DNA of 64,000 nucleotides from Dictyostelium discoideum (lineage: Eukaryota), in contig CM000151.3 of assembly GCA_000004695.1 (NCBI GenBank), positions 800,001 to 864,000 on the forward strand, given 5' to 3'. Below the pieces are notes generated by a model. The model had not been told where the DNA came from. It was given only the letters and a program-made list of their open reading frames with translations, and made no database searches. This document shows, piece after piece, positions 5,203 to 55,615 of the stretch (position 1 is its first letter; each line of letters opens with the position of its first letter). A program made the translations under genes and the position numbers.

Positions 5203-6963
<1,761 letters not shown>

Positions 6964-12600: not shown

Positions 12601-12737
12601 ACAGAAAAAAAAATAAAATAAAAAAATAAAAATAAAATAACTAACTAAATCTTATTTTATTTTATTTTATTTTATTTTGTTTTATTTTATTTTATTTTAT
12701 TTATCTAATTTTTTTTTTTTTTTAAAAAAAAAAAAGA

Positions 12738-30366: not shown

Positions 30367-33093
30367 ATGGCAGATGAAGATGATGGATTACAATTAAATA
30401 TTTGTTATTTACAACGTGTACCTAAAAAAGAAATAAATTCAAAAGCAGAAGAGGAAGCCTACTTTAAAGAAAATATCAGTAATAATAATAACTTTACAAA
30501 TAATAGAGCATATAGAGAGAAAACAAACAAAAATGAAAATAATTTAAATAATAATAAGAACAACAACAATAACAACAATAATAATAAAACTTACAATAAC
30601 AACAATAGTAATAATAGTTACAATAATAATAATTACAATAATAACTCATTTAATAATAATAATAATAATAACTATAATAATAATAATAGCAATAATAATA
30701 ATAATTCAAATAATAATAATTTAAATAAAAAACCAACATTTTTAGAAAAGAAAATTCAACAAGAACAAAAACAAAAAGAATTAAAAGAATTAAAAGGACC
30801 ACAACATCATAGATATAGGAATCAAGAGAATGAAGAGTCAAATGCAATTGAATCAAATTCAAATAATTTTAAAGATAAATATAAGTTTGCAGAAAATAAA
30901 ACTAAAAAAGATGAATTTAATAGACCAATTTTAGAAACAATTGAAAGTAATATTAAAGTTGAAAAATCTGAAACATTCAGTTCAATGAATTGGGGTTCAT
31001 TACAATTATCTGAAACATTGGTAAGGAATTTAGTTGGACATATGAAACATGAAAAACCAACACATATTCAAGAGGCATCGATAACACCAATTTTAAAAGG
31101 TAATGATGCATTGGTTAAGGCACAAACTGGTAGTGGTAAAACTTTATCCTATTTAATACCAGTGGTGCAAAAATTAACCGAACAACGTGTTACAAGATCA
31201 GATGGTTGCTATTGTGTAATCATTACACCAACAAGAGAATTATCATCACAGATTTATGAAGAACTTCAAAAACTTTTAAAACCATTCTATTGGATCGTTC
31301 CGGGTATAATTATGGGTGGTGAGAATAGAAGTGCTGAAAAAGCACGTATACGTAAAGGTATAAATATTTTAGTTGCAACACCTGGTAGATTATTAGATCA
31401 TTTACAAAATACTCAATCATTTCCAACTGATAATATTAAATGGTGTATTTTGGATGAAGCTGATAAATTATTGGATTTAGGTTTTGAAAAGGATGTTACC
31501 ACTATCATTAATTTATTAGATTCAAAAAAGAGAACAATGAAATTCAAAAGACAAAATATTTTAGTTTCTGCTACTCTTAGTGAAGGTATTTCAAGATTGG
31601 CTTCATTATCATTAACAAGTCCAGTTTACATTGGTTTGGATTCAAAAGTATTAGAAAAAGGTGAAAATCCATTCCAAGCTGCTGAAAAAGAAATGCTTCA
31701 AGCTCCAAAACAATTGGATCAATTTTATGTTGAAGTTGAATCAAAAGAACGTCTAACTTCTTTAATAGCCTTTATTAGATGGAAAACTTCAAATATTACA
31801 ATTGATAAAGGCGATGTTGCCTCTGGTAATAGTTCAGCAAATTCAAAAATGATTGTTTTCTTTTCATCATGTGATTCAGTCGATTTTCATCATTATATGT
31901 TTAGTAATATGAAAATGGATAAAGAGAGAGGTGTAAAAAGAACAAAGAAAGAACAAATTAAACAAGATAAATTAATTCAACAACATAAACAAAAGAATTC
32001 AAAAATTTTCCAAACTGGTAATGAAAGTGATGATGAAGAAAGTGATAATGATGATAGTGACGATAGTGATTCAAATAATTCAGATTCAGAAACTGATGAA
32101 GAAAAAGAAATTGAAAAACAAATTAAAGAGGCAACATCAAATCCAAATTATAGGGTAAAAACATCAGTTTTTTCAGTACCAATTTTTAAACTTCATGGTG
32201 AATTAGATCAACAAACTAGAACTAAAACATTTTTTGATTTTAAAAATTCACCAAATGGTATTTTATTAACTACCGATGTTTCAGCAAGAGGTTTAGATTT
32301 ACCATCGGTAAATTGGATCGTTCAATATGATCCATGTTCCGATACAAAAGATTATATTCATAGAATTGGTAGAACTGCTCGTTTAGGTAATCAAGGTTGT
32401 TCATTATTATTCCTTTTACCAAGTGAAAAGAAGTATATTGATCATTTGGCTAAATTTAATGTCTCTGTTAAAGAAATGAAAGTTACAACTATTCTTCAAA
32501 GTTTATTCTACACAAGTGATGGTCAATTGAAAAAAACTTCAAAATCTTCACAATTGGAATCACAAGTACACGATTTACAATTACTATTTGAAAGATTTTT
32601 AATTTATGATTCAAAAGCAAAGGAAATGGCAAGATGTGCTTATCAATCTTTCCTTAGATCTTATGCAACTCATAAAGCTGATGTTAAATCAATATTTCAT
32701 ATATCTTATTTACATTTAGGTCATGTTTCAAAGAGTTTTGCACTAAGAGAAACTCCAACAGAATTAAATAAAATGTCTGCTGGTATTAAAGGTGCTAAAG
32801 CGGCTAAAAAAGGTGATGAAGATACACTCCAAAAACAAACTGCTGATTTTAAAATGAAAAATTATAAATCTGTAAATGAATTCTCTGATGGTTTAAATGA
32901 TCAACCTTTACAAAGAGCAAATTTCCATTATGAATCTGCTAGTGGTGTCATTCACAATATCTATCAACGTCATTTCAATAGAAACGAAAGAGATGAAGCT
33001 GATAAAAACTCAAATCCAAAAGAAATCAAAGAAAAGAAAAGAAGATTATATGATAAAAAAATTGAATCAAATAAAAAATTTAAATCAAAATAA
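30367..33093 (+). CDS. DEAD-box ATP-dependent RNA helicase (DDX31/Dbp7-like). 908 aa from the ATG at 30367.
   Basis: Helicase motifs: Q-region ...PTHIQEASITPIL, I AQTGSGKT, Ia PTRELSSQ, II ILDEADKLLDLGF, III LVSATLS, V TTDVSARGLDLP, VI HRIGRTARLGNQG. There is an N-terminal N-rich low-complexity region and an acidic D/E/S insertion in the C-terminal RecA domain. The ORF-track start at 30265 lies in a poly-T promoter run (MSSFYFFYFFF) and is rejected. Confidence 0.9.
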   Translation: MADEDDGLQLNICYLQRVPKKEINSKAEEEAYFKENISNNNNFTNNRAYREKTNKNENNLNNNKNNNNNNNNNKTYNNNNSNNSYNNNNYNNNSFNNNNNNNYNNNNSNNNNNSNNNNLNKKPTFLEKKIQQEQKQKELKELKGPQHHRYRNQENEESNAIESNSNNFKDKYKFAENKTKKDEFNRPILETIESNIKVEKSETFSSMNWGSLQLSETLVRNLVGHMKHEKPTHIQEASITPILKGNDALVKAQTGSGKTLSYLIPVVQKLTEQRVTRSDGCYCVIITPTRELSSQIYEELQKLLKPFYWIVPGIIMGGENRSAEKARIRKGINILVATPGRLLDHLQNTQSFPTDNIKWCILDEADKLLDLGFEKDVTTIINLLDSKKRTMKFKRQNILVSATLSEGISRLASLSLTSPVYIGLDSKVLEKGENPFQAAEKEMLQAPKQLDQFYVEVESKERLTSLIAFIRWKTSNITIDKGDVASGNSSANSKMIVFFSSCDSVDFHHYMFSNMKMDKERGVKRTKKEQIKQDKLIQQHKQKNSKIFQTGNESDDEESDNDDSDDSDSNNSDSETDEEKEIEKQIKEATSNPNYRVKTSVFSVPIFKLHGELDQQTRTKTFFDFKNSPNGILLTTDVSARGLDLPSVNWIVQYDPCSDTKDYIHRIGRTARLGNQGCSLLFLLPSEKKYIDHLAKFNVSVKEMKVTTILQSLFYTSDGQLKKTSKSSQLESQVHDLQLLFERFLIYDSKAKEMARCAYQSFLRSYATHKADVKSIFHISYLHLGHVSKSFALRETPTELNKMSAGIKGAKAAKKGDEDTLQKQTADFKMKNYKSVNEFSDGLNDQPLQRANFHYESASGVIHNIYQRHFNRNERDEADKNSNPKEIKEKKRRLYDKKIESNKKFKSK

Positions 33094-33212
33094 ATAATCT
33101 TTTTAAAAAAATAAATATATATTATCCATTTTTTTTTTTTTTTTTTTAAAAAGTAATAATTTTGTAAATTGTTTATTATTTTTTTCTAAATACTATTATA
33201 CATTTAATTAAT

Positions 33213-33567
33213 TTAATTACAACCACAACTTGGATGTAAAATTGGATTTGTAATGGTACCAACTGTGTTTAAAACTGATCCCACAATTACACCAGTACCA
33301 ATTAAAACTCCACCAACAAGATTTCCTACTACATTTCCCAAAGTTGGTCCACCACATGGGCTATATTGAATTGAGTTTAATGATTGACTAGATGATGGTG
33401 ATGATGATGAGAATGAAACATTTTTTGATTTTGTAATTGATTTAACATTACCAATTGATGAGATTGAAGCTATAATAAATTAATATTAATATTTATAATT
33501 TTAAAAAATAAACAATTTAAAAACTATATTTTTTTAAATTTTATTATAAATTACCTAAGATTGTCAT
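33213..33567 (-). CDS. HssA/B-like (hssA/2C/7E family) small Gly/Ser-rich protein, divergent copy A. Exon 1 is 33555..33567; exon 2 is 33213..33469.
   Basis: ATGACAATCTTAG|GTAATT (MTIL-G), then an acceptor tattatag. The product is [89 protein letters not shown]. This matches the family layout of a 5-codon first exon, [10 protein letters not shown], a C/G-rich core, and a C-terminal CGC motif. Confidence 0.7.
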
Positions 33568-34238
33568 TTTTAGTTTTTAGTTTTTTTTTTTTATTATTTT
33601 TAAAAAAAAAATTATTTATTTATAGTAAAATAAAATCATATGTTTTTTTTTTTTTTTTTAACTTGTTTGGATAATAAATGATTTCATTTTTTTGATTAAT
33701 ATTAATCAATACAGATTTATTGTTTGAGTTTTAATTGTATGAAATACCAAAAAAAGTAAAAGTTAATCTTTGAAAATGAGATTTTCAAAAAAAAACAAAA
33801 GGATTATAATAAAATAATCTATTTTTTTTTTATTAAAAAGGATAAAAATATTTTTTGGAAAAATGAAAATGATTTGGTGTGTTTAAATCTATAAAAAATT
33901 AATTGCCTTTTTGCAAATGAAAAAATTTTAAATAAAAAAAAAAAAAATAACACAGATTAAAAATTAAATATTTAAATCTGATTTTAATTTGTTAAACCCT
34001 TTTTTAAAATTATTGACTTTTTCTGTTGATTGTTATAATGATAATTGAATGATTACAAAAGTTTATATTAAAACTTAAGATTTTCTTATTCATTTTCATA
34101 TCCTTTTTTTCTTTAAAAATATTAAATTTTAATATTACTCTAATATTTTGAATTTGTTTTGATAAAAATCAATATATTTAAATATATTAATTTTTTTAAA
34201 AGTCAAGTAACATGTAAAGATAAACAAATTATTTTAAA

Positions 34239-34277
<39 letters not shown>

Positions 34278-34355
34278 AATTAATTTAATTTTTACAGTTT
34301 ATTGAATTATTTTTAGTATTTGTTTTAATCTTTTAATTTAAATAATTTTACAGTT

Positions 34356-34685
34356 TTAATGGCAACCACAGTTTGGACCACTTAATAAACCACCAACAAC
34401 ACCATTGACAGTACCAACAATAATACCAGTTCCGACAAGTACACCACCTACGAGATTACCAACAGTACCAATTAATGGACTACCACCACCGCAGCCACCA
34501 CATTGTATTGAATTTGATGATTGTAATGATGAGTTTGATAATGATGAAAAATTATTTGATTTTGAAATTGATTTAACATTACCAATTCATGAGATTGAGG
34601 CTATTTAAAAATAATATAAAATAATTAATTTTAATATTATTTAATGTATATATATATATATATAAAACATACCTAAGATTGTCAT
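34356..34685 (-). pseudogene. HssA/B-like copy B. It has a premature in-frame TGA in codon 9 and a 12-nt in-frame deletion. Exon 1 is 34673..34685; exon 2 is 34356..34600.
   Basis: Exon 1 ATGACAATCTTAG|GTATGT is intact. Exon 2 begins CCTCAATCTCATGAATTGG, which in phase 1 reads A S I S stop. The plus strand has attCatgag where the other copies have attGatgag. Exon 2 also lacks the GTTGGAACTGTC segment. Confidence 0.6.
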
Positions 34686-34837
34686 TTTTAATTTTGTTAA
34701 TTGGAAATTAATTTTTTGATTTAATGATTATAAAATAAAAAAAAAAAAAACCTTTTATATCAAATTTTTTTAAACAAAAATTATTTATTTTTATTTGTTT
34801 TTAATTTATCTTACAAAAAATAAAAATAATAATTAAC

Positions 34838-35037
34838 TATCAATTAAGAAATAATGTGTTAATGGGGGTAATTATTGTGTGTTAATTAATCAACCGAATC
34901 CACCAAGGTTTTGATATGTATAAACTATTAAGTTAATACTTCATATAAATTTTTTTTTTTAAAATTTATATTGTTTCAGTTTAATTGTTCAAACACACAA
35001 TTAACCCCTCATTAACACATTATTTCCTAATTGATAG
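34838..35037. repeat. ~200-bp hairpin element with ~47-bp imperfect terminal inverted repeats (CTATCAATTARGAAATAATGTGTTARTGGGGGTAA...TTAACCCCWCATTAACACATTATTTCCTAATTGATAG). Copy 1, at the axis of hssl pair B/C.
   Basis: The left and right arms are reverse complements at ~90% identity. A ~110-bp spacer is itself partly palindromic. Further copies lie at 36840..37040, 40248..40446 and 42011..42208. A solo right-arm fragment lies at 52781..52806. Confidence 0.7.
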
Positions 35038-35389
35038 TAAATTTAAAGTATTTTTATTTATTTTTAAAGAATTTTTATTTATTCTACTCACACATCATAT
35101 TAAAATTTTTTTTTTTTTTTTTTTTTATTGTGTGGTATAATTTAATATATCTATTATACAAGAAAATAGTTTTTTGAAAATGAGATCTTTTGTGATCTAA
35201 ACAGTTAAATTTCTGAAAAAAAAGAATTTAATTATAATAATAAATTATTTGTTTTTTTTAAATTGATTTTTTTTTTTTTTAAATTTTTTTTTTTTCAAAA
35301 GTTCAAAATAAAAGTATAAATTCTAATTTTATTTCAATCATTATTTCATTAAATTAAACAATCAAAAAAATTTTAAATAAATTAATAAA

Positions 35390-35739
35390 ATGACACTCTT
35401 AGGTAAGTAATTAAATAATTAATTATAGTTTATTAAAAAATAATTTTATTAATTACTTATTTTTTAATATTAAAAAACTTAGCTTCAATCTCATCAATTG
35501 GTAATGTTAAATCAATTTCAAAATCAAATAATTTTTCATCATTATCAAACTCGTCATTACAATCATCAAACTCAATACAATGTGGTGGCTGCGGTGGTGG
35601 TAGTCCATTAATTGGTACTGTTGGTAATCTCGTCGGTGGTGTACTTGTCGGAACTGGTATTATTGTTGGTACTGTCATTGGAACTGTCAATGGTGTTGTT
35701 GGTGGTTTATTAAATGGACCAAACTGTGGATGTCATTAG
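35390..35739 (+). CDS. HssA/B-like copy C. Exons 35390..35402 and 35483..35739. 89 aa.
   Basis: ATGACACTCTTAG|GTAAGT with an acceptor aaaaaacttag. The product is [89 protein letters not shown]. The listed minus-strand ORF 35457..35690 is its antisense. Confidence 0.75.
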
Positions 35740-35934
35740 AACTGTAAAATTATTTAAATTATAATATTTTGTAATCAAAAAAGTTTTTTTATAATAAATA
35801 ACTTTGTATTAATAAAAAATTAAATCCAAAAAAGACTTAATGTTTCATTTTTTATTTTTTTATAATTTTTTTATTTTATTTTTACAATATTGTAAATTAC
35901 AAAAAGAGATTGATTATTTATACTTTTTTAAATT

Positions 35935-36190
35935 AATTACACTGACTTTCAACAGTTCTAGCATTTAGAATTAAAATATCAATTTGATATTACTTATAAA
36001 ATTTAATTAACCAATCTTTTAATTTACTTTGTCAGTAATATCAATCGATTCTACTTGAACACCAATATCCAAACATTCTTTTTTACTTCTTCTAATATTT
36101 CAATTTCCTTCCAGTCAAACCAAACCTCTTCCAGGATGACGCACCTGTGATAACTATTGCTTTTGGTGTCGGAAAATTTGTTTTCTTTTT
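35935..36190 (-). pseudogene. Decayed fragment of SDR exon 1 (remnant of a third SDR copy).
   Basis: The plus strand is alignable to 38650..38960 of SDR copy 1 (actgactttcaacagttc...cacctgtgataactattgcttttggtgtcggaaaatttgttttc). It has many substitutions and indels and no intact ORF. Confidence 0.6.
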
Positions 36191-36348
36191 TTATAATTTA
36201 AAAAACTTAATATTGTATAAAATAAAATATAAACAAATGAATTCAAAAATAATTTTTTTATTTTTAAATAATGAATTTAATTTTTACAGTTTATTGAATT
36301 ATTTTTAGTTTTTGTTTTATATCTATTAATTTAAATAATTTTACAGTT

Positions 36349-36688
36349 TTAATGGCAACCACAGTTTGGACCACTTAATAAACCACCAACAACACCATTG
36401 ACAGTTCCAACGACAGTACCAAGAATAATACCAGTTCCGACAAGTACACCACCTACGAGATTACCAACAGTACCAATTAATGGACTACCCCCACCGCAGC
36501 CACATTGAATTGAATTTGATGATTGTAATGACGAGTTTGATAATGATGAAAAATTATTTGATTTTGAAATTGATTTAACATTACCAATTGATGAGATTGA
36601 AGCTATTTAAAAATAATATAAAATAATTAATTTTTAATTATTTTGTGTATATATTTTTAGATTTTAAAGACATACCTAAGATTGTCAT
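36349..36688 (-). CDS. HssA/B-like copy D. Exon 1 is 36676..36688; exon 2 is 36349..36602. 88 aa (one-codon deletion).
   Basis: MTIL-G|GTATGT, acceptor ttttaaatag. Exon 2 encodes [84 protein letters not shown]. Confidence 0.75.
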
Positions 36689-36839
36689 TTTTTTAATATT
36701 GCTAATTGTAAATTTTAATAGTTTGATTTAATGATTTTTTTTTAAAATAAAAAAACCTTTTATATCAAATTTTTTAAAACAATAATTATTTTTTTTTATT
36801 TATTTTTAATTTATCTTACAAAATAATAATAATAATTAA

Positions 36840-37040
36840 CTATCAATTAGGAAATAATGTGTTAGTGGGGGTAAATATTGTGTGTTAATTAATCAACCGA
36901 ATCTACCGAAGTTTTTATATGTATAAACTATTGTGTTAGTTCTTCATATAAATTTTTTTTTTTAAAATTTATATTGTTTCAGTTTAATTGTTCAAACACA
37001 CAATTAACCCCACATTAACACATTATTTCCTATTTGATAG
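36840..37040. repeat. Hairpin IR element, copy 2 (axis of hssl pair D/E).
   Basis: Same arms as copy 1. Confidence 0.7.
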
Positions 37041-37374
37041 TAAATTTATATTATTATTATTTTTTTTTTTTTTTAGAAGTTTTATTTATTAACACATATT
37101 AATAATTTTTTTTTTTTTTGTGTGGTTTAATTTAGTATATCAATTATACAAGAAAATAATTTTTTGAAAATGAGATTTTTTGTGATTTAAACAGTTAAAT
37201 ATCTGAAAAAAAAAAGAATTTAATTATAAAAATAAATTATTTGTTTTTTTTTTAAATTAATTATATTTTTTAATTTTTTTTTTATTGAAAATAAAAGTAT
37301 AAATTCTAATTTTATTTTCAATCATTATTTCATTAAATCAAACAATCAAATAAACTTTAAAATAAATTAATAAA

Positions 37375-37721
37375 ATGACACTCTTAGGTAAATAATTAAA
37401 ATAAATTGTAGTTTATTAAAAAGTAATTTTATTAATTTATTTTATTTTATAAATTTAAAAAATTTAGCTTCAATCTCATCAATTGGTAATGTTAAATCAA
37501 TTTCAAAATCAAATAATTTTTCATCATTATCAAACTCATCATTACAATCATCAAACTCAATACAATGTGGTGGCTGCGGTGGTAGTCCATTAATTGGTAC
37601 TGTTGGTAATCTCGTAGGTGGTGTACTTGTCGGAACTGGTATTATTGTTGGTACTGTCGTTGGAACTGTCAATGGTGTTGTTGGTGGTTTATTAAGTGGT
37701 CCAAACTGTGGATGCCATTAA
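37375..37721 (+). CDS. HssA/B-like copy E. Exons 37375..37387 and 37468..37721. 88 aa.
   Basis: ATGACACTCTTAG|GTAAAT, acceptor aaaaaatttag. Same protein family. The minus-strand ORF 37442..37672 is the antisense artefact. Confidence 0.75.
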
Positions 37722-37871
37722 ATTTATTAAAATCGATAATGTTTTTTTATAATAAATAAATTTGTATAAATAAAAAATGAATTTCAAAAAAGACTTAACA
37801 TGTTCATTTTTATTATAACTATTTTTTTTTTTTTTTTTTACAATATTATAAATTACAAAAAAAAAGATTGA

Positions 37872-39063
37872 TTATTTATTATGAGTCTTAATTTTTTGAG
37901 AATTTAAATTTTTAACTGATGAGGAGGGACAATTTTCTCTTTTTGATTCATTTGTAGAATATCGAGAGTGATGAGAATAATGAGTTACTGGTTTCCTATA
38001 GTCTGGATATTTTGCAAGAGAATTTATAATAAAATTAGTGGCATCTCTTAAAGTTGGTGGAATTGTGGCAAAGAAATGAGATATACAATAAACTAAAGGT
38101 GGGCATGAAATTATTGCATCATTTCTACTAATACCATCTACAATGTATTTTGAAGCTTTGTCAGTTGTTATAGGTAGTAACATTGGTATATCTTTATAAT
38201 CCAAAGAATCAACTAATGGAGTATAAACAAAACCTGGTATTATTACTGAAACGCCAACACCTCTTGATGCTAAACCATTTCTAAGTATTAACCCAAATGA
38301 TTTTAGGTAACCTTTACTTGATGAATATCCTGCCATTGTATAATCAAAATATGGTGTAATACTTGACATCAAAACCAATTGACCAGATCCTCTTGATTCA
38401 AAGATTGGTACCATTGGTAAAACTGTATTCAAGGTTCCAATTACCTATAATAAATAATTTATTAATTAGTTTTAAAAGAATATCATTACTTTTTATATTT
38501 TTAAAATTATTTAAGATATTACATTTGTGTTTGTAACTGTTAATATTCTTTCAGTAAAATCTAATTCTTTTGGTAACATTGCTGGAATTTTTTTTTTAAA
38601 TATAAATAAATATATTAAGAAAACCAATTTTTTTTTTTTTAAAAAAGTAATTATACTGACTTTCAACAGTTCCAGCATTTGCAATTAAAATATCAATTTT
38701 ATATTTATTATCAAATTTAATTAACCAATCATATAATTTTTCTTTGTCAGTGACATCAATTGATTCAATTTCTACTTGAACACCAAGATCCAAACATTCT
38801 TTTTGAATTTCTTCTAATTTTTCAATGTTTCTTCCAGTTAAACCTAAAACCAAAGAATTATTGGTTTTTCTTTTTGCATATTCAAGTGCTATTCCTCTAC
38901 CAATACCAGATGATGCACCCGTGATAACTATTGCTTTTGGTGTTGGGAAATTTGTTTTCTTTTTTTTATAATTTAAAAAACCTAATATAGGATAAAATAT
39001 TAAAAGAATCATTGAACCAATTATATTGGTCAACAATAAAGATATATCAGTTAGCACTGCCAT
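37872..39063 (-). CDS. Membrane-anchored short-chain dehydrogenase/reductase (SDR), copy 1. Exons 38661..39063, 38523..38581, 37872..38444.
   Basis: N-terminal TM helix (LTDISLLLTNIIGSMILLIFYPILGFL). Rossmann motif ITGASSGIGRGIALEYAKRK. NAG motif ILIANAGTVE. Catalytic YSSSK in exon 3. The splice sites are GTCAGT (38655-38660) with ttccag (38582-38583), and GTAATA (38517-38522) with ttattatag (38445-38446). Phases 1/0 are consistent, and the same sites occur in copy 2. Confidence 0.8.
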
Positions 39064-39130
39064 TCTTATTATTAATTTTTTTTGAAAAATTTAAATTAAA
39101 AAAAAATTTAAATTAATAAAAAAAATTTAA

Positions 39131-39168
<38 letters not shown>

Positions 39169-39334
39169 TTAAAGTGTTAAAATTCTAAACCGTTTAAAAG
39201 AATGTTTAATTAATTAATTCAAAAACACCAAGAATAAAAATTGATTTACAATATTAAATTTTCATTTTTTAACAAATTTTTTTTATATTTTTTAAAAAAA
39301 ATACAAAACAGGAAGGTTGTCAAAACAGATCTAT

Positions 39335-39382
<48 letters not shown>

Positions 39383-39645
39383 TTTAATATAAAATTAAAT
39401 AATTAAATAAATCATTTTAAATCTAATTTTAATTTTAAAAACATTTTACAAAGATTAAAATCAGATTTAAAATAACTTTTTCTTTAGTTAATCAAATAAT
39501 AATTAAATAATTTCAAAAGTTTATATTTATACTTTTTTTTTTTATTCATTTTCATATTCACTTTTAATAAGATTATCATAAAAAATTCTGAATTGTTTTA
39601 ATGAAATAAATTTATTAAATATTTTAAAAAAATGAATTCAAAATT

Positions 39646-39680
<35 letters not shown>

Positions 39681-39760
39681 AATAATGAATTTAATTTTTA
39701 CAGTTTATTGAATTATTTTTAGTATTTTTTTATATCTATTAATATAAATAATTTTCAGTT

Positions 39761-40107
39761 CTAATGACATCCACAGTTTGGACCACTTAATAAACCACCA
39801 ACAACACCATTGACAGTTCCAACAACAGTACCAAGAATAATACCAGTTCCAACAAGTACTCCACCGACGAGATTACCTACGGTACCAATTAATGGACTAC
39901 CACCACCGCAGCCACATTGAATTGAATTTGATGATTGTAATGACGAGTTTGATAATGATGAAAAATTATTTGATTTTGAAATTGATTTAACATTACCAAT
40001 TGTTGAGATTGAAGCTAAGTTTTTAATATTAAAAAATAAATAATTAATAAAATTTTTTTTTAATAAACTACTATTAATTATTTTAATTACTTACCTAAGA
40101 GTGTCAT
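39761..40107 (-). CDS. HssA/B-like copy F. Exon 1 is 40095..40107; exon 2 is 39761..40014. It is plus-slot type (MTLL-G|GTAAGT) sitting in a minus-strand slot.
   Basis: The revcomp of cttacctaagagtgtcat gives ATGACACTCTTAG GTAAGT. Exon 2 encodes [84 protein letters not shown], then a TAG stop. Confidence 0.75.
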
Positions 40108-40247
40108 TTTATTAATTTATTTAGAGTATTTTGATTTAATGATTTATTAAAAAAAAAAAAAAAAAAAAAATCCTTTTATATCAAAATTTTTTATAACAAT
40201 AATAACAACGTTTATTTGCTTTTAATTTATCTTAATAATAGTAATTA

Positions 40248-40446
40248 ACTATCAATTAGGAAATAATGTGTTGGTGGGGGTAAATATTGTGTGTTAATTA
40301 ATCAACCGAATCTACCGAAGTTTTTATATGTATAAACTATCGTGTTAGTACTTCATATAAACTTTTTTTTTAAATTTATATGTTTCAGTTTAATTGTTCA
40401 AACACACAATTAACCCCACAATAACATATTATTTCCTAATTGATAG
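40248..40446. repeat. Hairpin IR element, copy 3 (axis of hssl pair F/G).
   Basis: Same arms as copy 1. Confidence 0.7.
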
Positions 40447-40760
40447 TAAATTTATATTATTATTATTATTTTTTAAAAAAAGTTTTATTTATTCTTCTCA
40501 CACACATTAAAAATAATAATATTTTTTTTTTTGTGAGGTTTAATTTAATATATCGATTATATAAGAAAATAATATTTTGAAAATAAGATTTTTTGTGATT
40601 TAAACAGTTAAATATCTGAAAAAAAGAATTTAATTATAATAATTAATTATTTGTTTTTTTTAATTTTTTTATTTTTTTTATTCAAAATAAAAGTATAAAT
40701 TCTAATTTTATTTTCAATCATTAAATTAAACAATCAAATAAACTCTAAATAAATTAATAA

Positions 40761-41112
40761 AATGACACTCTTAGGTAAGTAATTAAAATAATTAATAGTA
40801 GTTGATTAAAAAATAATTTTATTAATTATTTATTTTTTAATATTAAAAAACTTAGCTTCAATCTCAACAATTGGTAATGTTAAATCAATTTCAAAATCAA
40901 ATAATTTTTCATCATTATCAAACTCATCATTACAATCATCAAATTCAATTCAATGCGGTGGCTGCGGTGGTGGTAATTCATTAATTGGTACTGTTGGAGG
41001 TCTTGTTGGTGGTGTACTTGTTGGAACTGGTATTATTGTTGGTACTGTCATTGGAACTGTTAATGGTGTTGTTGGTGGTTTATTAAGTGGTCCAAGCTGT
41101 GGATGCCATTAA
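40761..41112 (+). CDS. HssA/B-like copy G. Exons 40761..40773 and 40856..41112.
   Basis: MTLL-G|GTAAGT with an acceptor aaaaaacttag. Exon 2 encodes [11 protein letters not shown]...[53 protein letters not shown]. Confidence 0.75.
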
Positions 41113-41274
41113 AATAATGTTTTTTAGAATAAATAAATTTGTATATATAAAAAATGAAATTCAAAAAATACCTAACACCTTTCTTTTTTTTTTTTTATTA
41201 TTTGTTTTTAATTTTTTTATATAATTACTAAAATTGAATTTTTTTTTTTTTTTTTTAAAAATTAATTACACTGA

Positions 41275-41400
41275 CTTCCAACTGTTCCAGTATTTGCAAT
41301 TGATCAATTTGATGTTTATCATCCAAATTTAATTAACTGATCTTTATATTTTCTTTGTCAGTGACATCATAAAAATTCTGAATTTGTAGTTATAAAATGT
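41275..41400 (-). pseudogene. Short decayed SDR exon-1 remnant (fourth ancestral copy).
   Basis: cactgacttccaactgttccagtatttgcaattga...tttctttgtcagtgacatc aligns to the 3' end of SDR exon 1 (38650..38760). Confidence 0.45.
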
Positions 41401-41528
41401 AACATGTAAAGATTAACAAATGAATTCAAAAATAATTTTTTTTTTTTTTTATTAATTTAATTTTTACAGTTTATTTGAATTATTTTTAGTATTTGTTATA
41501 TATTTTTTAATTTAAATAATTTTACATT

Positions 41529-41870
41529 TTAATGGCAACCACAGTTTGGACCACTTAATAAACCACCAACAACACCATTGACAGTTCCAACGACAGTACC
41601 AACAATAATACCAGTTCCTACAAGTACACCACCCACAAGATTACCAACAGTACCAATTAATGGACTACCACCACCACAGCCACCACATTGAATTGAATTT
41701 GATGATTGTAATGACGAGTTTGATAATGATGAAAAATTATTTGATTTTGAAATTGATTTAACATTACCAATTGATGAGATTGAAGCTATTTAATAATAAA
41801 ATAAAATAATTAATTTTTAATTATTTTGTGTATATTTTTTAGATTTTAAAGACATACCTAAGATTGTCAT
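41529..41870 (-). CDS. HssA/B-like copy H. Exon 1 is 41858..41870; exon 2 is 41529..41785.
   Basis: MTIL-G|GTATGT, acceptor aaatag, full-length 89-aa product ending ...GPNCGCH. Confidence 0.75.
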
Positions 41871-42010
41871 TTTTTTAATTTTGTTAATTGTAAATTTTAA
41901 TAGTTTGATTTAATGATTTTTTTAAAAAAAAAAAAACCTTTTATATCATAATTTTTAAATTTTTTTATTTGTTTTTAATTTATCTTACAAAAAAAAAAAA
42001 TAATAATAAA

Positions 42011-42208
42011 CTATCAATTAGGAAATTTATGTGTTAGTGGGGGTAAATATTGTGTTAATTAATCAACCGAATCTACCGAAGTTTTTATATGTATAAACTA
42101 TCGTGTTAGTACTTCATATAAACTTTTTTTTTAAATTTATATTGTTTCAGTTTAATTGTTCAAACACACAATTAACCTCACAATAACATATTATTTCCTA
42201 ATAGATAG
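42011..42208. repeat. Hairpin IR element, copy 4 (axis of hssl pair H/I).
   Basis: Same arms as copy 1. Confidence 0.7.
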
Positions 42209-42562
42209 TATATTTTTATTATTATTTTTTTTTTAAAAAAAGTTTTGTTTTTTCTTCTCACACATATCATATAAAAAATAATAATAATAATTTTTTTTTT
42301 TTTTTTGTGTGGTTTAATTTAATATATCGATTATACAAGAAAATCGTTTTTTGAAAATGAGATTTTTTGTGATTTAAACAGTTAAATATCTGAAAAAAAG
42401 AATTTAATTATAATAATTGATTATTTGTTTTTTTTTTTAAAATTAATTATATTATTTAATTTTTTTTTTTTATTCAAAATAAAAGTATAAATTCTAAATT
42501 TATTTTCAATCATTATTTCATTAAATCAAACAATCAAATAAACTTAAAAATAAATTAATAAA

Positions 42563-42912
42563 ATGACACTCTTAGGTAAATAATTATAATTAATTATAGT
42601 TTATTAAAAAAGTAATTTTATTAATTATTTTATTTTATAATATTAAAAAACTTAGCTTCAATCTCATCAATTGGTAATGTTAAATCAATTTCAAAATCAA
42701 ATAATTTTTCATCATTATCAAACTCATCATTACAATCATCAAATTCAATTCAATGTGGTGGCTGCGGTGGTGGTAGTCCATTAATTGGTACTGTTGGTAA
42801 TCTCGTCGGTGGAGTACTTGTTGGAACTGGTATTATTGTTGGTACTGTTGTTGGAACTGTCAATGGAGTTGTTGGAGGTTTATTAAGTGGTCCAAACTGT
42901 GGATGTCATTAA
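42563..42912 (+). CDS. HssA/B-like copy I. Exons 42563..42575 and 42656..42912.
   Basis: MTLL-G|GTAAAT, acceptor aaaaaacttag, 89-aa product. The minus ORF implied in the track is antisense. Confidence 0.75.
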
Positions 42913-43066
42913 AATAAATGTTTTTTTATAATAAATAGCTTTGTACAAATAAAAATGAAATTCAAAAAGATTTAATACATTTCTTTTTTTTTTATTATTT
43001 ATTTTTTTATTTTTTATTTTTACAATATTTATTTTTAAATTAGAAAAAATGATTAATTATTTATTA

Positions 43067-44242
43067 TTATGCCTCTTTATTTTTTTGAGAATTTGAATTC
43101 ATAGCTGGTGAGGAGGGACAATCCTCTCTTTTTGATTCATTTGTTGAATATTGAGAGTGATGAGAATAATGAGTTACTGGTTTACTATAATCTGGATATT
43201 TCAAAAGAGAATTTGAAATGAAATTAGTGGCATCTCTTAAAGTTGGTGGAATTGTGGCAACGAAATGAGATATACAATAAATTAAAGGTGGGAATGAAAT
43301 TATTGCATCATTTCTACTAATGCCATCGACAATGTATTTTGAAGCTTTGTCAGTTGTTATAGGTAGTAACATAGGTATATCCTTATAATCCAAAGAATCA
43401 ACTAATGGAGTATAAATAAAACCTGGTGTTATTACTGAAACGCCAACGCCTCTTGATGCTAAACCATTTCTAAGTATTAACCCAAATGATTTTATGTAAC
43501 CTTTACTTGATGAATATCCTGCCATTACATAATCAAAATATGGTGTAATACTTGACATCAAAACCAATTGACCAGATCCTCTTGATTCAAAGATTGGTAC
43601 CATTGGTAAAACTGTATTCAATGTTCCAATTACCTATAATAATTTATTAATTAGTTTTAAAAGAATATCGTTACTTTATATTCAAATTATTTAAGATATT
43701 ACATTTGTGTTTGCAACTGTTAATATTCTTTCAGTAAAATCTAATTCTTTTGGTAAAATTGCTATGAAAATTATTTTTTTTAAATAATTAATACAAGTAA
43801 ACCTTTTTTTTTTTTTTAAAAAAAATTATGTATACTGACTTTCAATAGTTCCAGCATTTGCAATTAAAATATCAATTTTATATTTATTGTCAAATTTAAT
43901 TAACCAATCATTTAATTTTTCTTTGTCAGTGACATCGATTGATTCAATTTCTACTTGAACACCAAGACCCAAACATTCTTTTTGAATTTCTTCTAATTTT
44001 TCAATGTTTCTTCCAGTTAAACCTAAAACCAAAGAGTTATTTTTTTTTCTTTTTGCATATTCAAGTGCTATTCCTCTACCAATACCAGATGATGCACCCG
44101 TGATAACTATTGCTTTTGGTGTTGGGAAATTTGTTTTCTTTTTTTTATAATTTAAAAAACCTAATATAGGATAAAATATTAATAGAATTATTGAACCAAT
44201 TATATTGGTCAACAATAATGATATATCAGTTAAGACTCCCAT
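43067..44242 (-). CDS. Membrane-anchored SDR, copy 2 (paralog of 37872..39063). Exons 43840..44242, 43703..43761, 43067..43633.
   Basis: Nearly identical to copy 1. It has the same TM N-terminus, TGASSGIGRG, the GTCAGT donor (43834-43839), the middle 59-nt exon (ILPKELDFTERILTVANTN), and YSSSKGYIKSFG in exon 3. Confidence 0.8.
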
Positions 44243-44655
44243 TCTTATTATTTTTTATTTTTTTTGAAATGAAAAAAAAAAAAAATTATTAAATGGCAAA
44301 AACTCAATCAAAAAAAAAAAAAATAAATAAATAAAAAAAATAAAAATAAAATAAAATAAATCTGATTCCAAAGATATTTTTAGATTTTTTTTATTTTTTT
44401 TTTTTTATTTTTCCCAAATAAGAATTTAATTAAATAAAAATTGAATAATTAAATAAACCAAAATTAAAAAATAAAATATAAAAAACAAATTACTTTAATT
44501 AGAAATTAATTTATAAAAAAAAAGAAAAAAGAAAATTGTGAAATAAATTTTTTAAAATTATGGAGCATATAAAAAGAACAAATTTTTTTTTTATTATTTC
44601 CAATATTATTATTTATATTTTAAAAAATAAACAAATAAACAAATAAAAAAAAAAA

Positions 44656-45699
44656 ATGTTTAAACAAATAATTATATTTATAGCTTTAATACTTTTTATT
44701 TTTAATCAATTGGATATAGTATCAAGTTGTAGATGTGATTCAGATTGTGAAGATTGTAACGAATGTACATTAGATACCTGCTCCCGTGGATGTTGTTCAA
44801 ATATTGAAATAGATTGTGCTGATGATAATCCATGTACCAAAGATTCATGTTCCAAAGAGACTGGTTGTATTCATGAAGATATTAATTGTGATGATGGTGA
44901 TGCTTGTACAACTGATTCATGTTCTCAATTATCTGGTTGTTGTAATTTACCAATCTCTTGTGATGCTTGTACAACCGATTCTTGTTTAAATTCCACTGGT
45001 TGTTGTAGTTTACCAATCTCTTGTGATGATGGTGATGCTTGTACAACTGATTCATGTTCAAAGAAAACTGGTTGCAGTAATGTTCCAATTGCATGTGATG
45101 ATGGCAATGCTTGTACCAATGATGGTTGTTCAAAGGAAACTGGTTGCACTCATTCTAATATCGATTGTGATGATGGTGATGCTTGTACAACTGATTCATG
45201 TTCAAAGAAAACTGGTTGCTGTAATGTTCCAATTGCTTGTGACGATGGTAATGCTTGTACCACTGATGGCTGTTCCAAGGAAACTGGTTGCACACATTCT
45301 AATATCGACTGTGATGATGGTGATGCTTGCACTACTGATTCATGTTCTAAAAAGACTGGTTGCAGTAATATACCAATGTCTTGTAATGATAATGATGCTT
45401 GCACAACCGATTCATGTTCAAACTCTACTGGTTGTTGTAATTCCCCGATTTCATGCGATGATGATCATGCTTGTACCACCGATAGTTGTTCTAAAGAAAC
45501 TGGTTGTTGCAATTCCCCAATCTCTTGTGATGATGGTGATTTGTGTACCACCGACAGTTGTTCTAAAGAAACTGGTTGTTGCCATACTCCAGTTTCATGC
45601 GATGATGGAGAAGATTGTACAACTGACACTTGTTCATCAAAATTAGGATGTGTTCATACCTATATCACTATTTCTCAACCAAAACCTGTTGATTGTTGA
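44656..45699 (+). CDS. Secreted Cys-rich protein built of ~13 tandem 24-aa Dictyostelium CTDC-type repeats. 347 aa.
   Basis: Signal peptide MFKQIIIFIALILFIFNQLDIVSS. The repeat unit is C(D/N)DG(D/N)ACTTDSCSK(K/E)TGC(C/S)N(V/I)PI(A/S). It is the 24-residue Cys repeat of EcmA/EcmB-type extracellular matrix proteins (Pfam Dicty_CTDC). The overlapping ORFs 44882..45133, 44925..45149, 45023..45646 and 45150..45404 are repeat-frame artefacts. Confidence 0.7.
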   Translation: MFKQIIIFIALILFIFNQLDIVSSCRCDSDCEDCNECTLDTCSRGCCSNIEIDCADDNPCTKDSCSKETGCIHEDINCDDGDACTTDSCSQLSGCCNLPISCDACTTDSCLNSTGCCSLPISCDDGDACTTDSCSKKTGCSNVPIACDDGNACTNDGCSKETGCTHSNIDCDDGDACTTDSCSKKTGCCNVPIACDDGNACTTDGCSKETGCTHSNIDCDDGDACTTDSCSKKTGCSNIPMSCNDNDACTTDSCSNSTGCCNSPISCDDDHACTTDSCSKETGCCNSPISCDDGDLCTTDSCSKETGCCHTPVSCDDGEDCTTDTCSSKLGCVHTYITISQPKPVDC

Positions 45700-51073: not shown

Positions 51074-51108
<35 letters not shown>

Positions 51109-51192
51109 TCTTGCAACAATTTGTTTTTTTTTTTTTTCAAATTTATTTTTTATTTTTTTTTTTTCCTCAATCTTAAAAAAACAATCATCAAA

Positions 51193-52713
51193 ATGGATAA
51201 TTTATTTAGATTAGTATTTAAAAATGTAATTATTAGAAATCAAATATTTAGGTTTGTTAGAATTTTAAACAAAGATTTAATTGTGAAGAAATATAATCAG
51301 TGTAATATGGGCTGGATTATAAAAAATGGTCACTTTCATCTTTTATTGTATAAACTTAAAAAACATATTAAAAGGGACCAATTCTCAGAAGAATTATTTT
51401 ATAGATTTTTACAAGGTAATAGTGAATTACATTTACTTAAAGATATGTTTAAAATATTCCCACAGTTTTTACCGTCAACTCCAATTGCTGAAAATATATT
51501 AATTGAACATTGTTCAAGTTTAAAACCAACTAAAAACCTATCACCCTCTTCTTCTTCATATTCTCCAAACTTTTCTTCTACTTCAGTATCTTCTTCTTCA
51601 TCTGATTCTTCTTTTTCTTCAATTGATTCTTCTTCTTCTTCTTCTTCTTCTTCCAATCAAGAATTTTGTGAACAATCATATGATTATGATTCCTCTTCTC
51701 CATATGATTCTAGTTTAGATATTATAAAATATTTAACAAATGAATTAAATATAAAAGTAACAAATAAAGCAATAAATAATGCATGTGCAGCTAATAATTG
51801 TAAAATTGTGGGATATTATCTTGGTTTAAATCAACTCGATAGATACAAAGGGAATGAAATTGATATTTATGATAATTGTAATATTGGTACTTTATTTTGC
51901 TCATTGAGGGGTAAAGATTTTCAATTATTTAAATTTATTTTTGAAAATAATCCAAATTTAACTTCTCAATGTATAAGCTATGACAAATTTATAAAATTAA
52001 TGGTAGCAACAGGTGATATCCAATTCATTATTCACTTTGGTAGAGTTCAAGGACCTTCTTATAAACCTCCACAATTACAACCATATATGATCGCAAAATC
52101 ATCATTAAGTATAATTAAATACCTATGCTCATTTTTAAAAATAAATGACCCTATGTATTATAAATCATTATTATATGCTATTGAAAAAAGGAAAAATCAA
52201 AGCGAGAGATTCCTACTTTTAAAATTCCTTATTGAAGAGTTTAGAATCTATGAAAAGGTTGAAGGTAGTACAGTGGTGCAAGAAGTAGTTTACTCATTCT
52301 GCGGTATCGGTGATTTAGATTGCATAATATACCTCCGTGATTTTTACTTAACTCTACCACAAAATCATAGTTTTAAGTTTTTAATTCCACGTTCCGCCTT
52401 GGATGTATCAATATCTTCAAAAAATTTTCATGTAACTAATTGGATTTTAGAAAATACAAATGTATGTTGTTCAATTAATGGTTTAAGGTACCTTTGCAAA
52501 AATATGGCCAATCTTAAGCATATACTTGATAGAATATTAATAAAATTTGTGCCCATTCGTGCAATCTCAAGTAAAATGCTTTTGGATGCAATGCATTCAA
52601 CAAATAGAATTGCTCATGATAAAGAAAATTTTGATTATCTAGCTTCTTTTTTACCAAATCATTTAATCCCTACTTTTCCAATTGAAACCTCAATAGAGGA
52701 TTATGACTATTAA
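51193..52713 (+). CDS. Dictyostelium-specific protein of unknown function, with a Ser-rich low-complexity segment. The intact member of a tandem pair, ~506 aa.
   Basis: Continuous ORF from ATGGATAATTTATTTAGA (MDNLFRLVFKNVIIRNQIFRFVRILNKDLIVKKYNQCNMGWIIKNGHFHLLLYKLKK...). I recognised no domain. The ORF-track start at 51106 lies in poly-T and is rejected. Confidence 0.55.
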   Translation: MDNLFRLVFKNVIIRNQIFRFVRILNKDLIVKKYNQCNMGWIIKNGHFHLLLYKLKKHIKRDQFSEELFYRFLQGNSELHLLKDMFKIFPQFLPSTPIAENILIEHCSSLKPTKNLSPSSSSYSPNFSSTSVSSSSSDSSFSSIDSSSSSSSSSNQEFCEQSYDYDSSSPYDSSLDIIKYLTNELNIKVTNKAINNACAANNCKIVGYYLGLNQLDRYKGNEIDIYDNCNIGTLFCSLRGKDFQLFKFIFENNPNLTSQCISYDKFIKLMVATGDIQFIIHFGRVQGPSYKPPQLQPYMIAKSSLSIIKYLCSFLKINDPMYYKSLLYAIEKRKNQSERFLLLKFLIEEFRIYEKVEGSTVVQEVVYSFCGIGDLDCIIYLRDFYLTLPQNHSFKFLIPRSALDVSISSKNFHVTNWILENTNVCCSINGLRYLCKNMANLKHILDRILIKFVPIRAISSKMLLDAMHSTNRIAHDKENFDYLASFLPNHLIPTFPIETSIEDYDY

Positions 52714-52961
52714 TAATAATAAAAATAATATTAATAAATAATAATAATGCATCTATCCAAAAAACATAAAATTTACCCCCACTAACACATTATTTCCTAT
52801 TGATATTTTTTGTAATAAAAATTAAAATAATAAATTTAATTACTTTAAATGAAATAAAAAATTTATTTATATTTAGTTCCTATATGAAATGATACTAATA
52901 GATTTGTTGTTTTTTTTTCTTTTTAAATTTAATATTTTATAAACTTTTTTTTTTTTTTTTT

Positions 52962-52962
<1 letters not shown>

Positions 52963-53048
<86 letters not shown>

Positions 53049-53051
53049 TTT
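52963..53051. repeat. (ATTT)n microsatellite of ~22 units, immediately 3' of the minus-strand gene 53054..55615.
   Basis: tttatttatttattta... read directly. Confidence 0.9.
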
Positions 53052-53053
53052 CA

Positions 53054-54011
53054 TTAATGATTTGAAGAGCAACAAGAAAGTAAAGTTTTTAATTGAGTTT
53101 GAATGACTTCATTAGTTTGTTGTAAAAGTGAATTTCTATTTGCTAATAATTCCTTACTATTTTTTAATCTTGATGTATCCTCCATTAGTTGAGATAAAGA
53201 GGTAGTTGCTTTTGCACCAAGATTTTCCAACTCTTGGAGTTCTTTTCTCAATTTTTTGTTTTCATTAAATAATACCTCTCTTTCTCTTTCCATTCTTTCA
53301 AGTTTTGTAACTAAAGAACGCAAACTAAATGATAATGATACAAGTGATGAATTTGTAGTTGATCCATTTGAATAGTCATCATAATTATTTCCGGAATCAA
53401 ATGAATTTGAATTTCTTTTTCTTTTTCCATTTTCATTTTGTTCGTTATAATCTTGTTGATTATTATAAAATTGTTGTGTTTGTTGATGATGTTGTTGTTG
53501 TTGTTGTTGCTGTTGTTGTTGCTGTTGTGGTGGTGGTTGATGTTGTTGTTGCTGTTGTTGTTGCTGTTGTTGTTGTTGTTGTTGAGTGTGTTGGTATTGA
53601 TGATGTTGTTGGTATTGTTGTTGTTGTTGTTGTTGTTGCTGTTGCTGTTGTTGGTGTTGTTGTTGTTGAGGTCCATTTAAATGAGAGGGGAAAATTGAAT
53701 GTTGTTGAGATGATGTTGGTGACTGTTGCTGTTGTTGATGATGTTGTTGTTGCTGCTGTTGTCCACCATTTATCATGCTATTATACTGTAAGAATATTTT
53801 ATCATTTCCTTTATTATACAAATGTTGTTGAGTTTGAATTTGTGTTGGTTGATTTGATTTTTGTTTATCCTCCATTGTCTGAGTTCTTTTTCTACCTCTG
53901 TTAGCAGCTGTTGTCGTTGTAGTGGTTGTTGTTGTCGTTTGCTGTTGATTTGAATTTGATGGTGAATAGGAATTATTATTATTACCATTACTATTATTAT
54001 TATTATTACTA

Positions 54012-54081
<70 letters not shown>

Positions 54082-55611: not shown

Positions 55612-55615
<4 letters not shown>
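53054..55615 (-). CDS. Highly repetitive low-complexity nuclear-type protein. It has poly-N, poly-Q, (ER)n, (EK)n and a poly-T(hr) run, plus a basic patch and a C-terminal coiled-coil/leucine-zipper-like region. 853 aa.
   Basis: Single long ORF. The basic segments are RGRKRTQTMEDKQK and NGKRKRNS. The C-terminus is LVTKLERMEREREVLFNENKKLRKELQELENLGAKATTSLSQLMEDTSRLKNSKELLANRNSLLQQTNEVIQTQLKTL. The (ER)n comes from a (TCTCTT/GAGA) DNA tract at 54615..54836. Overlapping plus-strand ORFs (poly-L, poly-V, poly-Y, SL repeats) are artefacts. Confidence 0.6.

Follow-up and report, generated by a model that had tools for sequence, protein, structure and literature searches.

A region of chromosome 2 of Dictyostelium discoideum AX4, at ~833.2-844.2 kb, is in our judgement (probability about 0.9) the published Group 2 array of sigN genes, within which genes of the SDR (short-chain dehydrogenase/reductase) family were carried along as passengers of duplication. 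It occupies positions 33213 to 44242 of the stretch of 64,000 nucleotides that was analysed (chr2:800001-864000, hereafter the window; window positions are used throughout and are offset from those of the chromosome by 800,000). The array is made up of seven near-identical genes of the hssA/2C/7E, or HssA/B-like (hssl), family (sigN6, sigN12, sigN7, sigN11, sigN8, sigN14 and sigN9), one pseudogene partner and the outlier sigN10. The genes are already annotated in dictyBase and UniProt, and the array has been known since 2008. An initial annotation of this DNA had described the array and had proposed that its hssl and SDR genes may be co-regulated or act in a shared pathway. Little changes through our analysis, and its useful outcome is a negative one: the proposed association is contradicted by published expression and by gene geometry. 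What we add is a pseudogene partner of sigN6, a deletion junction that orders the duplications and a second promoter motif common to sigN10, along with purifying selection on the proteins and species-specific homogenisation of the arrays of sister species. These additions may help promoter dissection and the study of concerted evolution in the family.

Results

Identity of the array

Vicente et al. (2008, BMC Microbiol 8:1; PMC2257962) described 96 sigN-related genes, 89 of them with a first-exon open reading frame (ORF) of 13 nt. Their Group 2 comprises, within 10 kb of chromosome 2, seven ~95%-identical genes (sigN6, 7, 8, 9, 11, 12 and 14) and the outlier sigN10. Neighbouring genes are oppositely oriented, the palindromic intergenic regions carry two pairs of GBF-type G-boxes (regions A and B), and the cluster was traced to repeated duplication of an inverted gene pair; genes, promoters and duplication origin had thus all been published before the initial annotation was made. 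The same study reports induction at ~10 h, activity of a sigN9 promoter-lacZ fusion in prestalk and stalk, GBF dependence of sigN12, disaggregation of mounds by an anti-Group-2 antibody, and antibody detection of a 12-kDa product with vesicular staining. Deletion of the whole of Group 2, or of Groups 1 and 2 together, gave no phenotype in growth or development.

Is the region analysed here this very array? Because exact D. discoideum hssl sequences are absent from the protein collection searched, the genes were identified by their SDR neighbours, by chromosome coordinates and by the literature. The translations of the two intact SDR genes match XP_645503.1/Q75JC5 and XP_645508.1/Q75JE7 of D. 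discoideum AX4 exactly. In the rows consulted of the supplement to Kin et al. 2018 (PMC6198379), DDB_G0271720 (EAL71550, SDR family) is placed at chr2 843067-844242 (-), that is, at window 43067-44242, and DDB_G0271722, the next gene of the table, at 844656, in agreement with an ATG at window 44656. The sigN names were assigned from the intron lengths, protein sizes and pairing (sigN7/12, 9/14 and 8/11, with sigN6 alone) given in PMC2257962. Intron lengths and protein sizes agree with Table 1 of that paper, introns being counted 1 nt longer here, and for the outlying copy A the size, the length of the intron and a place adjoining Group 2 point to sigN10. In all these respects, and in their location in the ~10-kb chromosome 2 cluster, the genes are members of Group 2. 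The base composition of the region, ~20% G+C, is usual for Dictyostelium.

Copies of the hssl gene were sought over the whole 64 kb by scanning for the pattern of the 13-nt first exon and splicing in silico. Nine copies (A to I, in order of position) were obtained, eight of which form four head-to-head pairs; tblastn with the product found no further copy across the window. Exon 1 reads ATGACA(A/C)TCTTAG, the intron measures 72-85 nt, exon 2 ~250 nt and the product 88-89 aa. Eight copies encode an uninterrupted protein of this length that starts with MT(I/L) and ends with GPNCGCH. In copy B, which is the inverted partner of sigN6, codon 9 is an in-frame TGA and 12 nt are deleted in frame, while the 13-nt exon, the GTATGT donor and the promoter-proximal region are retained; this copy is missing from the seven Group 2 genes of PMC2257962. 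The initial annotation had counted nine genes with GTAAGT or GTATGT donors. Nine two-exon copies with the 13-nt exon are present, but copy B as read from its sequence is a pseudogene, which leaves eight intact genes; and alongside GTAAGT (C, F, G) and GTATGT (B, D, H) the donors GTAAAT (E, I) and GTAATT (A) also occur. Its other statements about the genes are borne out: the family assignment, the arrangement in four divergent pairs around a hairpin, and the claim that the small listed ORFs lie antisense to hssl genes, since those of at least 60 aa that overlap hssl in the mechanical list (34405-34608 +, 35457-35690 - and 37442-37672 -) are antisense to exon 2.

Assignment to the hssA/2C/7E family (HssA/B-like, PF05710) follows from a full-length profile match, the two-exon architecture and the small Ser/Gly/Cys-rich product. 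A core copy matches PF05710 with E = 1.8e-26 and 93.3 bits (cut-off 21.4) over profile positions 1-90 of 90. sigN10, which is only 52% identical to the core copies, still reaches 81.8 bits against the same cut-off (E = 6.5e-23). The family, reported to be Dictyostelium-specific, is very narrow: an exhaustive search returned 6 proteins at E <=0.001 among 1.84 billion representatives, and the sole match of a word-indexed protein search with the spliced product, in the collection that is without the exact D. discoideum hssl sequences, was a D. dimigraforme protein of 63% identity.

Structure of the SDR genes and their relics

An intact SDR gene follows pairs 2 and 4 and a decayed remnant of its first exon follows pairs 1 and 3, as gene models and relic alignments confirm for an arrangement that the initial annotation had also described. 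SDR1 and SDR2 are 91.6% identical, with a synonymous divergence (dS) of 0.093 and a nonsynonymous to synonymous ratio (dN/dS) of 0.46. SDR1 matches PF00106 with E = 3.4e-30 and 105 bits (cut-off 26.6), and the motifs ITGASSGIG, IANAG and YSSSK can be read in the sequence. These include the TGxxxGxG cofactor motif and the Ser...YxxxK catalytic motif, and make the products classical SDRs. They have a hydrophobic N-terminus and align over their full length to HSD17B13 at E = 3e-17. A literature search for DDB_G0271720 and DDB_G0271820 found nothing in main texts.

The relic after pair 1 lacks exons 2-3 and the ATG region and has an internal ~57-bp deletion; it aligns to SDR1 in two segments (35930-36124 to 38644-38848, 84.9%; 36131-36224 to 38906-38999, 90.5%). 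A shorter relic follows pair 3. Both pass from just beyond the SDR stop codon directly into intron 1. Because they align continuously across this common junction (35785-36043 to 41120-41369), one deletion was apparently inherited by both.

Upstream of SDR1, long tracts rich in poly(A) and in poly(T) at 39074-39171 and 39324-39428 form a low-complexity inverted repeat; they are probably ordinary AT-rich intergenic DNA.

Expression and geometry of the hssl and SDR genes

Are the two kinds of gene expressed together? Values were taken from three rows (DDB_G0271720, sigN7 and sigN12) of the RNA-seq supplement to Kin et al. 2018 (PMC6198379). In these rows, the SDR gene DDB_G0271720 stands at 72.4 and 66.7 transcripts per million (TPM) in vegetative cells and at <=0.41 TPM in every replicate of cup, stalk and spore. 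sigN12 stands at 0 at 0 h, 586 at 8 h, 0.14 in vegetative cells and 1620 TPM in cup cells, and sigN7 at 0 at 0 h, 302 at 8 h, 0 in vegetative cells and 2364 TPM in cup cells. For the genes covered, expression of SDR and sigN is thus opposite, with no co-expression in these rows.

Gene geometry points the same way. Each SDR gene and the plus-strand hssl gene before it are arranged tail-to-tail, with ~150 bp between stop codons. Because the SDR gene is convergent and has its own upstream region, the two have no promoter in common. Nor were hssl genes seen near paralogous SDR loci within the sequence fetched, which covers a tandem triplet of D. discoideum (L004) and two D. purpureum loci (L005 and L006), the former of which adjoins a tubulin gene. 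Neither a shared regulatory region nor recurrent linkage of hssl and SDR genes was therefore found. The Group 2 deletion, if contiguous, must have removed SDR1, which the gene order places between sigN7 and sigN11, and it had no phenotype. Opposite expression, separate promoters, hssl-free paralog loci and a deletion without phenotype lead us to regard the SDR as a passenger of the duplications. The co-regulation or shared pathway suggested by the initial annotation is not supported by these data.

Duplication history

Self-BLAST shows both segmental and inverted duplications. It aligns 36225-39165 with 41408-44341 along 3 kb, at 90.5%. Identity among the four pair units is 83-91%, minus-strand genes mirror their plus-strand partners at 84-93%, and a super-unit of two pairs recurs with a period of 5183-5406 bp (~5.2-5.4 kb). 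The initial annotation was right about the ancestral unit, [hssl(-)-palindrome-hssl(+)-SDR(-)], from which the array grew by tandem segmental duplication. It had this unit amplified four times. A unit with a single SDR does exist in D. firmibasis and D. dimigraforme, but the deletion junction common to the relics fits another path: from one unit to two, loss of SDR exons 2-3 in one of them, then duplication of the two-pair super-unit. This is the simplest history and the likely order.

What do the sister species look like? In D. firmibasis (L001) and D. dimigraforme (L003), a single-copy SDR orthologue is flanked by [hssl(-), hssl(+), SDR], with more hssl pairs nearby; in D. citrinum only an 18-aa hssl remnant lies beside the SDR. 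Three species thus keep the hssl(+)/SDR(-) adjacency, and a fourth has a remnant of it. The species are closely related and share general synteny (Rrp15 is nearby in two), and the conserved adjacency is probably ordinary synteny among them. Inverted hssl partners are 95-97% identical within a species (D. firmibasis L001 4767-5033 / 5863-6129; D. dimigraforme L003 11463-11669 / 12719-12925), whereas the hssl proteins of the two species are ~80% identical to each other, with species-specific residues within. This pattern indicates concerted evolution (homogenisation) or independent recent duplication and expansion of the arrays.

The same adjacency is seen in another isolate, D. cf. discoideum, where one public gene model of 207 aa (P0015, ACTFIZ_001786) combines hssl-like sequence (95% identity across residues 6-87) with SDR-like sequence; the model is probably an error of annotation in which an hssl gene and the neighbouring SDR relic were fused.

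Palindromic promoters

Each head-to-head pair is centred on an imperfect palindrome of ~250 bp with arms of ~75-100 nt. Folded as single-stranded DNA, the palindrome of pair 2 reaches -54 kcal/mol, z = -12 against dinucleotide shuffles. The arms, whose sequence includes CTATCAATTAGGAAATAATGTGTTAGTGGGGGTAAAT, carry TGGGGGT followed by TGTGTGT, together with the mirror images ACACACA and CCCCACA. They correspond to the G-box pairs described in PMC2257962, one box being lost in pair 4. By the paired upstream half-sites (T/G)G(T/G)G(T/G)G(T/G), the regions are putative G-box promoters. Conservation between the four units is 91-94% for the core, against 90-99% for coding sequence and 67-76% for flanking intergenic sequence, which fits functional constraint or gene conversion.

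As a whole the intergenic regions are asymmetric. On the side of the plus-strand gene they extend ~175 bp further and include a second conserved island, and global alignment of whole regions to their own reverse complement gives ~55% identity, a figure that is uninformative as the palindrome is off-centre. Within the island lies the motif TTGAAAATRAGAT, which has 5 occurrences in the window where 0.10 would be expected. Four are in promoters of plus-strand hssl genes; the remaining one lies upstream of sigN10 by 203 bp and is there a perfect palindrome, TTTGAAAATGAGATTTTCAAA. The inverted TTGA half-sites of the motif may resemble Dd-STAT sites. No copy was seen at hssl promoters in the loci of sister species, and the sequence fetched contains one match in all, in D. 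citrinum (L002 13318-13330, -), which lies downstream of the SDR by ~2 kb.

We rejected a reading of the hairpin as an RNA gene: an Rfam scan of 33000-44700 gave no family at gathering score, and ARAGORN found no tRNA in the whole window. RNAalifold on the four hairpins returned three A-U/U-A flips only, in AT-rich outer columns, with a positive covariation term. Because this covariation is not meaningful, selection for the hairpin structure as such is unsupported.

Selection on the proteins

Pooled over the seven intact core genes, the proportion of synonymous differences (pS) is 0.123 and that of nonsynonymous differences (pN) 0.020, a ratio of 0.16, which shows purifying selection on the SigN protein sequence. 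Across the eight intact copies and one D. dimigraforme homologue 41 residues are invariant, among them the three cysteines C41, C86 and C88. Selection at the protein level matters since, for hssA itself, the transcript has been made responsible for the effect (PMC6198379). A single-sequence AlphaFold2 model of the hssl product has a mean predicted local distance difference test score (pLDDT) of 48.5, too low for use, and hints at a helical hairpin in the GxxxG-rich, Gly-rich segment. With this glycine-zipper-like hydrophobic segment the SigN products are probably secreted or membrane-associated; roles in the adhesion of cells or in the extracellular matrix have been proposed in the literature.

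Table 1. Genes, relics and promoter elements of the array, in window positions.
Feature	Position	Strand	Description
sigN10 (copy A)	33213-33567	-	exon 1 33555-33567, 85-nt intron, exon 2 33213-33469; 89 aa; divergent
unnamed hssl pseudogene (copy B)	34356-34685	-	inverted partner of sigN6; MTILASIS*; tblastn 89.5% identity
sigN6 (copy C)	35390-35739	+	89 aa; named by pairing, intron length and protein size
sigN12 / DDB_G0271714 (copy D)	36349-36688	-	88 aa; intron 72-73 nt
sigN7 / DDB_G0271818 (copy E)	37375-37721	+	88 aa; complement of sigN12
sigN11 (copy F)	39761-40107	-	88 aa; complement of sigN8
sigN8 (copy G)	40762-41112	+	89 aa; intron 80-81 nt
sigN14 (copy H)	41529-41870	-	89 aa; intron 71-72 nt
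sigN9 (copy I)	42563-42912	+	89 aa; promoter-lacZ studied in PMC2257962
SDR1 (XP_645503.1 / Q75JC5; taken to be DDB_G0271820)	37872-39063	-	exons 39063-38661, 38581-38523, 38444-37872; 344 aa
SDR2 (XP_645508.1 / Q75JE7; DDB_G0271720)	43067-44242	-	three exons; 342 aa
SDR relic after pair 1	35930-36224	-	part of exon 1 and end of intron 1
shorter SDR relic after pair 3	41243-41369	-	matches 38628-38758 (84%)
palindromic promoter core, pair 1	34811-35067		TGGGGGT...TGTGTGT mirrored as ACACACA...CCCC
palindromic promoter core, pair 2	36820-37069		regions A and B of Vicente et al.; inverted repeat, fold
palindromic promoter core, pair 3	40233-40477		inverted repeat, G-boxes
palindromic promoter core, pair 4	41985-42236		one G-box degraded
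conserved promoter island, plus-gene side, pair 2	37144-37203	+	contains TTGAAAATGAGAT; 93% conserved against ~70% in flanks
TTGAAAATRAGAT motif sites	33770-33782, 35174-35186, 37164-37176, 40577-40589, 42351-42363		~200 bp upstream of hssl ATG

Other features of the window

Away from the hssl genes, a solitary 46-nt copy of a hairpin arm (52761-52809, 87-91% identical, containing ACCCCCAC...CACATTATTTCCTATTGATA) lies between two genes that converge, 51106-52713 (+) and 53054-55615 (-); a mobile element or an old duplication could have left it behind. The second of these genes is an 853-aa ORF rich in poly-N, poly-Q and (ER/DR) repeats, and just downstream of it, at 52955-53052, is a (TTTA)n microsatellite of ~20 units.

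Discussion

How would such an array work? Each head-to-head pair would be driven from its common intergenic promoter, the symmetric palindrome with mirrored GBF-type G-boxes turning on both divergent genes after aggregation, from ~8-10 h, in prestalk and then in cup cells; we infer this bidirectional use of the palindrome from its symmetry. The SDR genes would be vegetatively expressed, HSD17B11/13-like membrane-anchored dehydrogenases carried along as neighbours and not co-regulated with sigN.

Could the hssl genes and the membrane SDR instead have been co-amplified as a functional module, co-regulated or acting in a common pathway? Physical co-duplication that left two intact SDRs and two relics would suit such a module, as would the tail-to-tail adjacency in D. 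firmibasis and D. dimigraforme with its remnant in D. citrinum, and the intactness of both SDR copies at dN/dS 0.46. At the level of expression, however, it is largely refuted by the supplementary rows consulted, in which the SDR is vegetative-only and sigN development-only. The convergent genes have separate promoters, two of the four SDR copies have decayed beside hssl pairs described as intact, the SDR is single-copy in sister species, where the hssl arrays beside it are multi-copy, no hssl genes adjoin the SDR paralog cluster or the D. purpureum loci, and the deletion of Group 2 that must take SDR1 has no phenotype (PMC2257962). We therefore find a functional module extremely doubtful. A regulatory variant, in which developmental read-through from sigN(+) shuts off the vegetative SDR(-) by transcriptional interference or antisense RNA, is also very unlikely in our view; if true, it would explain the mutually exclusive expression and the linkage kept in three species.

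Two further alternatives concern the promoters and the products. The ~250-bp hairpin might be a mobile element, or the relic of one, that resembles a miniature inverted-repeat transposable element (MITE), landed between the two genes of an ancestral pair and took on the role of promoter. Its terminal inverted arms of ~75-100 nt and very stable fold (z = -12), the solo arm copy in a tail-to-tail intergenic region that is no promoter, and the failure to detect the element in sister-species hssl promoters all have this flavour. Yet the mirror symmetry takes in the coding regions as well, with ~40 bp upstream of every ATG, so the whole pair is an inverted duplication; the AT-rich flanks show no recognisable target-site duplication, only one dispersed half-copy occurs in 64 kb, and the arms bear exactly the G-box motifs expected of GBF-dependent promoters. 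We judge a mobile origin very unlikely. That sigN/hssl loci act via their transcripts and not their proteins, as reported for hssA, would agree with the finding that a frame-shifted hssA still suppresses the STATa-related culmination defect (literature summary in PMC6198379), with the very high cup-cell transcript levels in the rows consulted and with gene deletion without phenotype (PMC2257962). The excess of pS over pN in the seven intact copies, the invariant residues shared with the D. dimigraforme homologue and the antibody detection of a 12-kDa product with vesicular staining speak for proteins, and leave transcript action as a highly improbable account of these genes.

Several points nevertheless weigh against our reading of the region as the Group 2 array with passenger SDR genes, or against parts of it. 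Pairs 1 and 3 are the least similar of the units (83-86%), a poor fit to a simple super-unit duplication; under that history their divergence requires gene conversion or faster decay. In the sister-species loci we found no equivalent of the palindromic core, whether by BLAST, which gave AT-rich noise, by a composite G-box regular expression or by inverted-repeat searches. Binding of GBF at the G-boxes is predicted from sequence. The expression argument covers one of the two SDRs and two sigN genes in the supplement, and reads of near-identical paralogs may be mis-assigned. The conserved adjacency leaves some room for a functional link.

Comparison with known systems

The closest likeness is to the Group 2 sigN genes of PMC2257962 themselves: the locus is identical, and the 13-nt exon 1, the products of 88-89 aa, the inverted pairs and the palindromic G-box promoters are shared. 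That description differs from ours in that neither the SDR genes and their relics nor the pseudogene partner of sigN6 nor the TTGAAAATRAGAT island common to sigN10 is mentioned. With GBF-dependent post-aggregative promoters the array shares paired G-box half-sites, induction after aggregation and, for sigN12, GBF dependence by microarray; here, in contrast, the pairs of sites form a long palindrome between two divergent genes, with binding and bidirectional use being putative. Like the membrane and lipid-droplet SDRs (human HSD17B11 and HSD17B13, yeast YMR226C), the D. discoideum SDRs have the PF00106 domain, TGxxxGxG, YxxxK and a hydrophobic N-terminal anchor. Unlike these, they have a C-terminal low-complexity tail and are annotated only as 'short-chain dehydrogenase/reductase family protein'.

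Within the hssA/2C/7E family (~96-100 D. discoideum genes), the 13-nt first exon of 89/96 members, a structure restated by Kin et al. 2018 (PMC6198379), the PF05710 match, the small Ser/Gly/Cys-rich products and the restriction to dictyostelids are all common ground. hssA itself differs in being a pstA gene whose effect is possibly RNA-mediated. Nine hssA-like genes that form a tight clade of their own are cup-specific and late (PMC6198379), whereas the Group 2 sigN genes come on earlier, at 8-10 h; sigN7 and sigN12 are, like that late clade, cup-enriched too.

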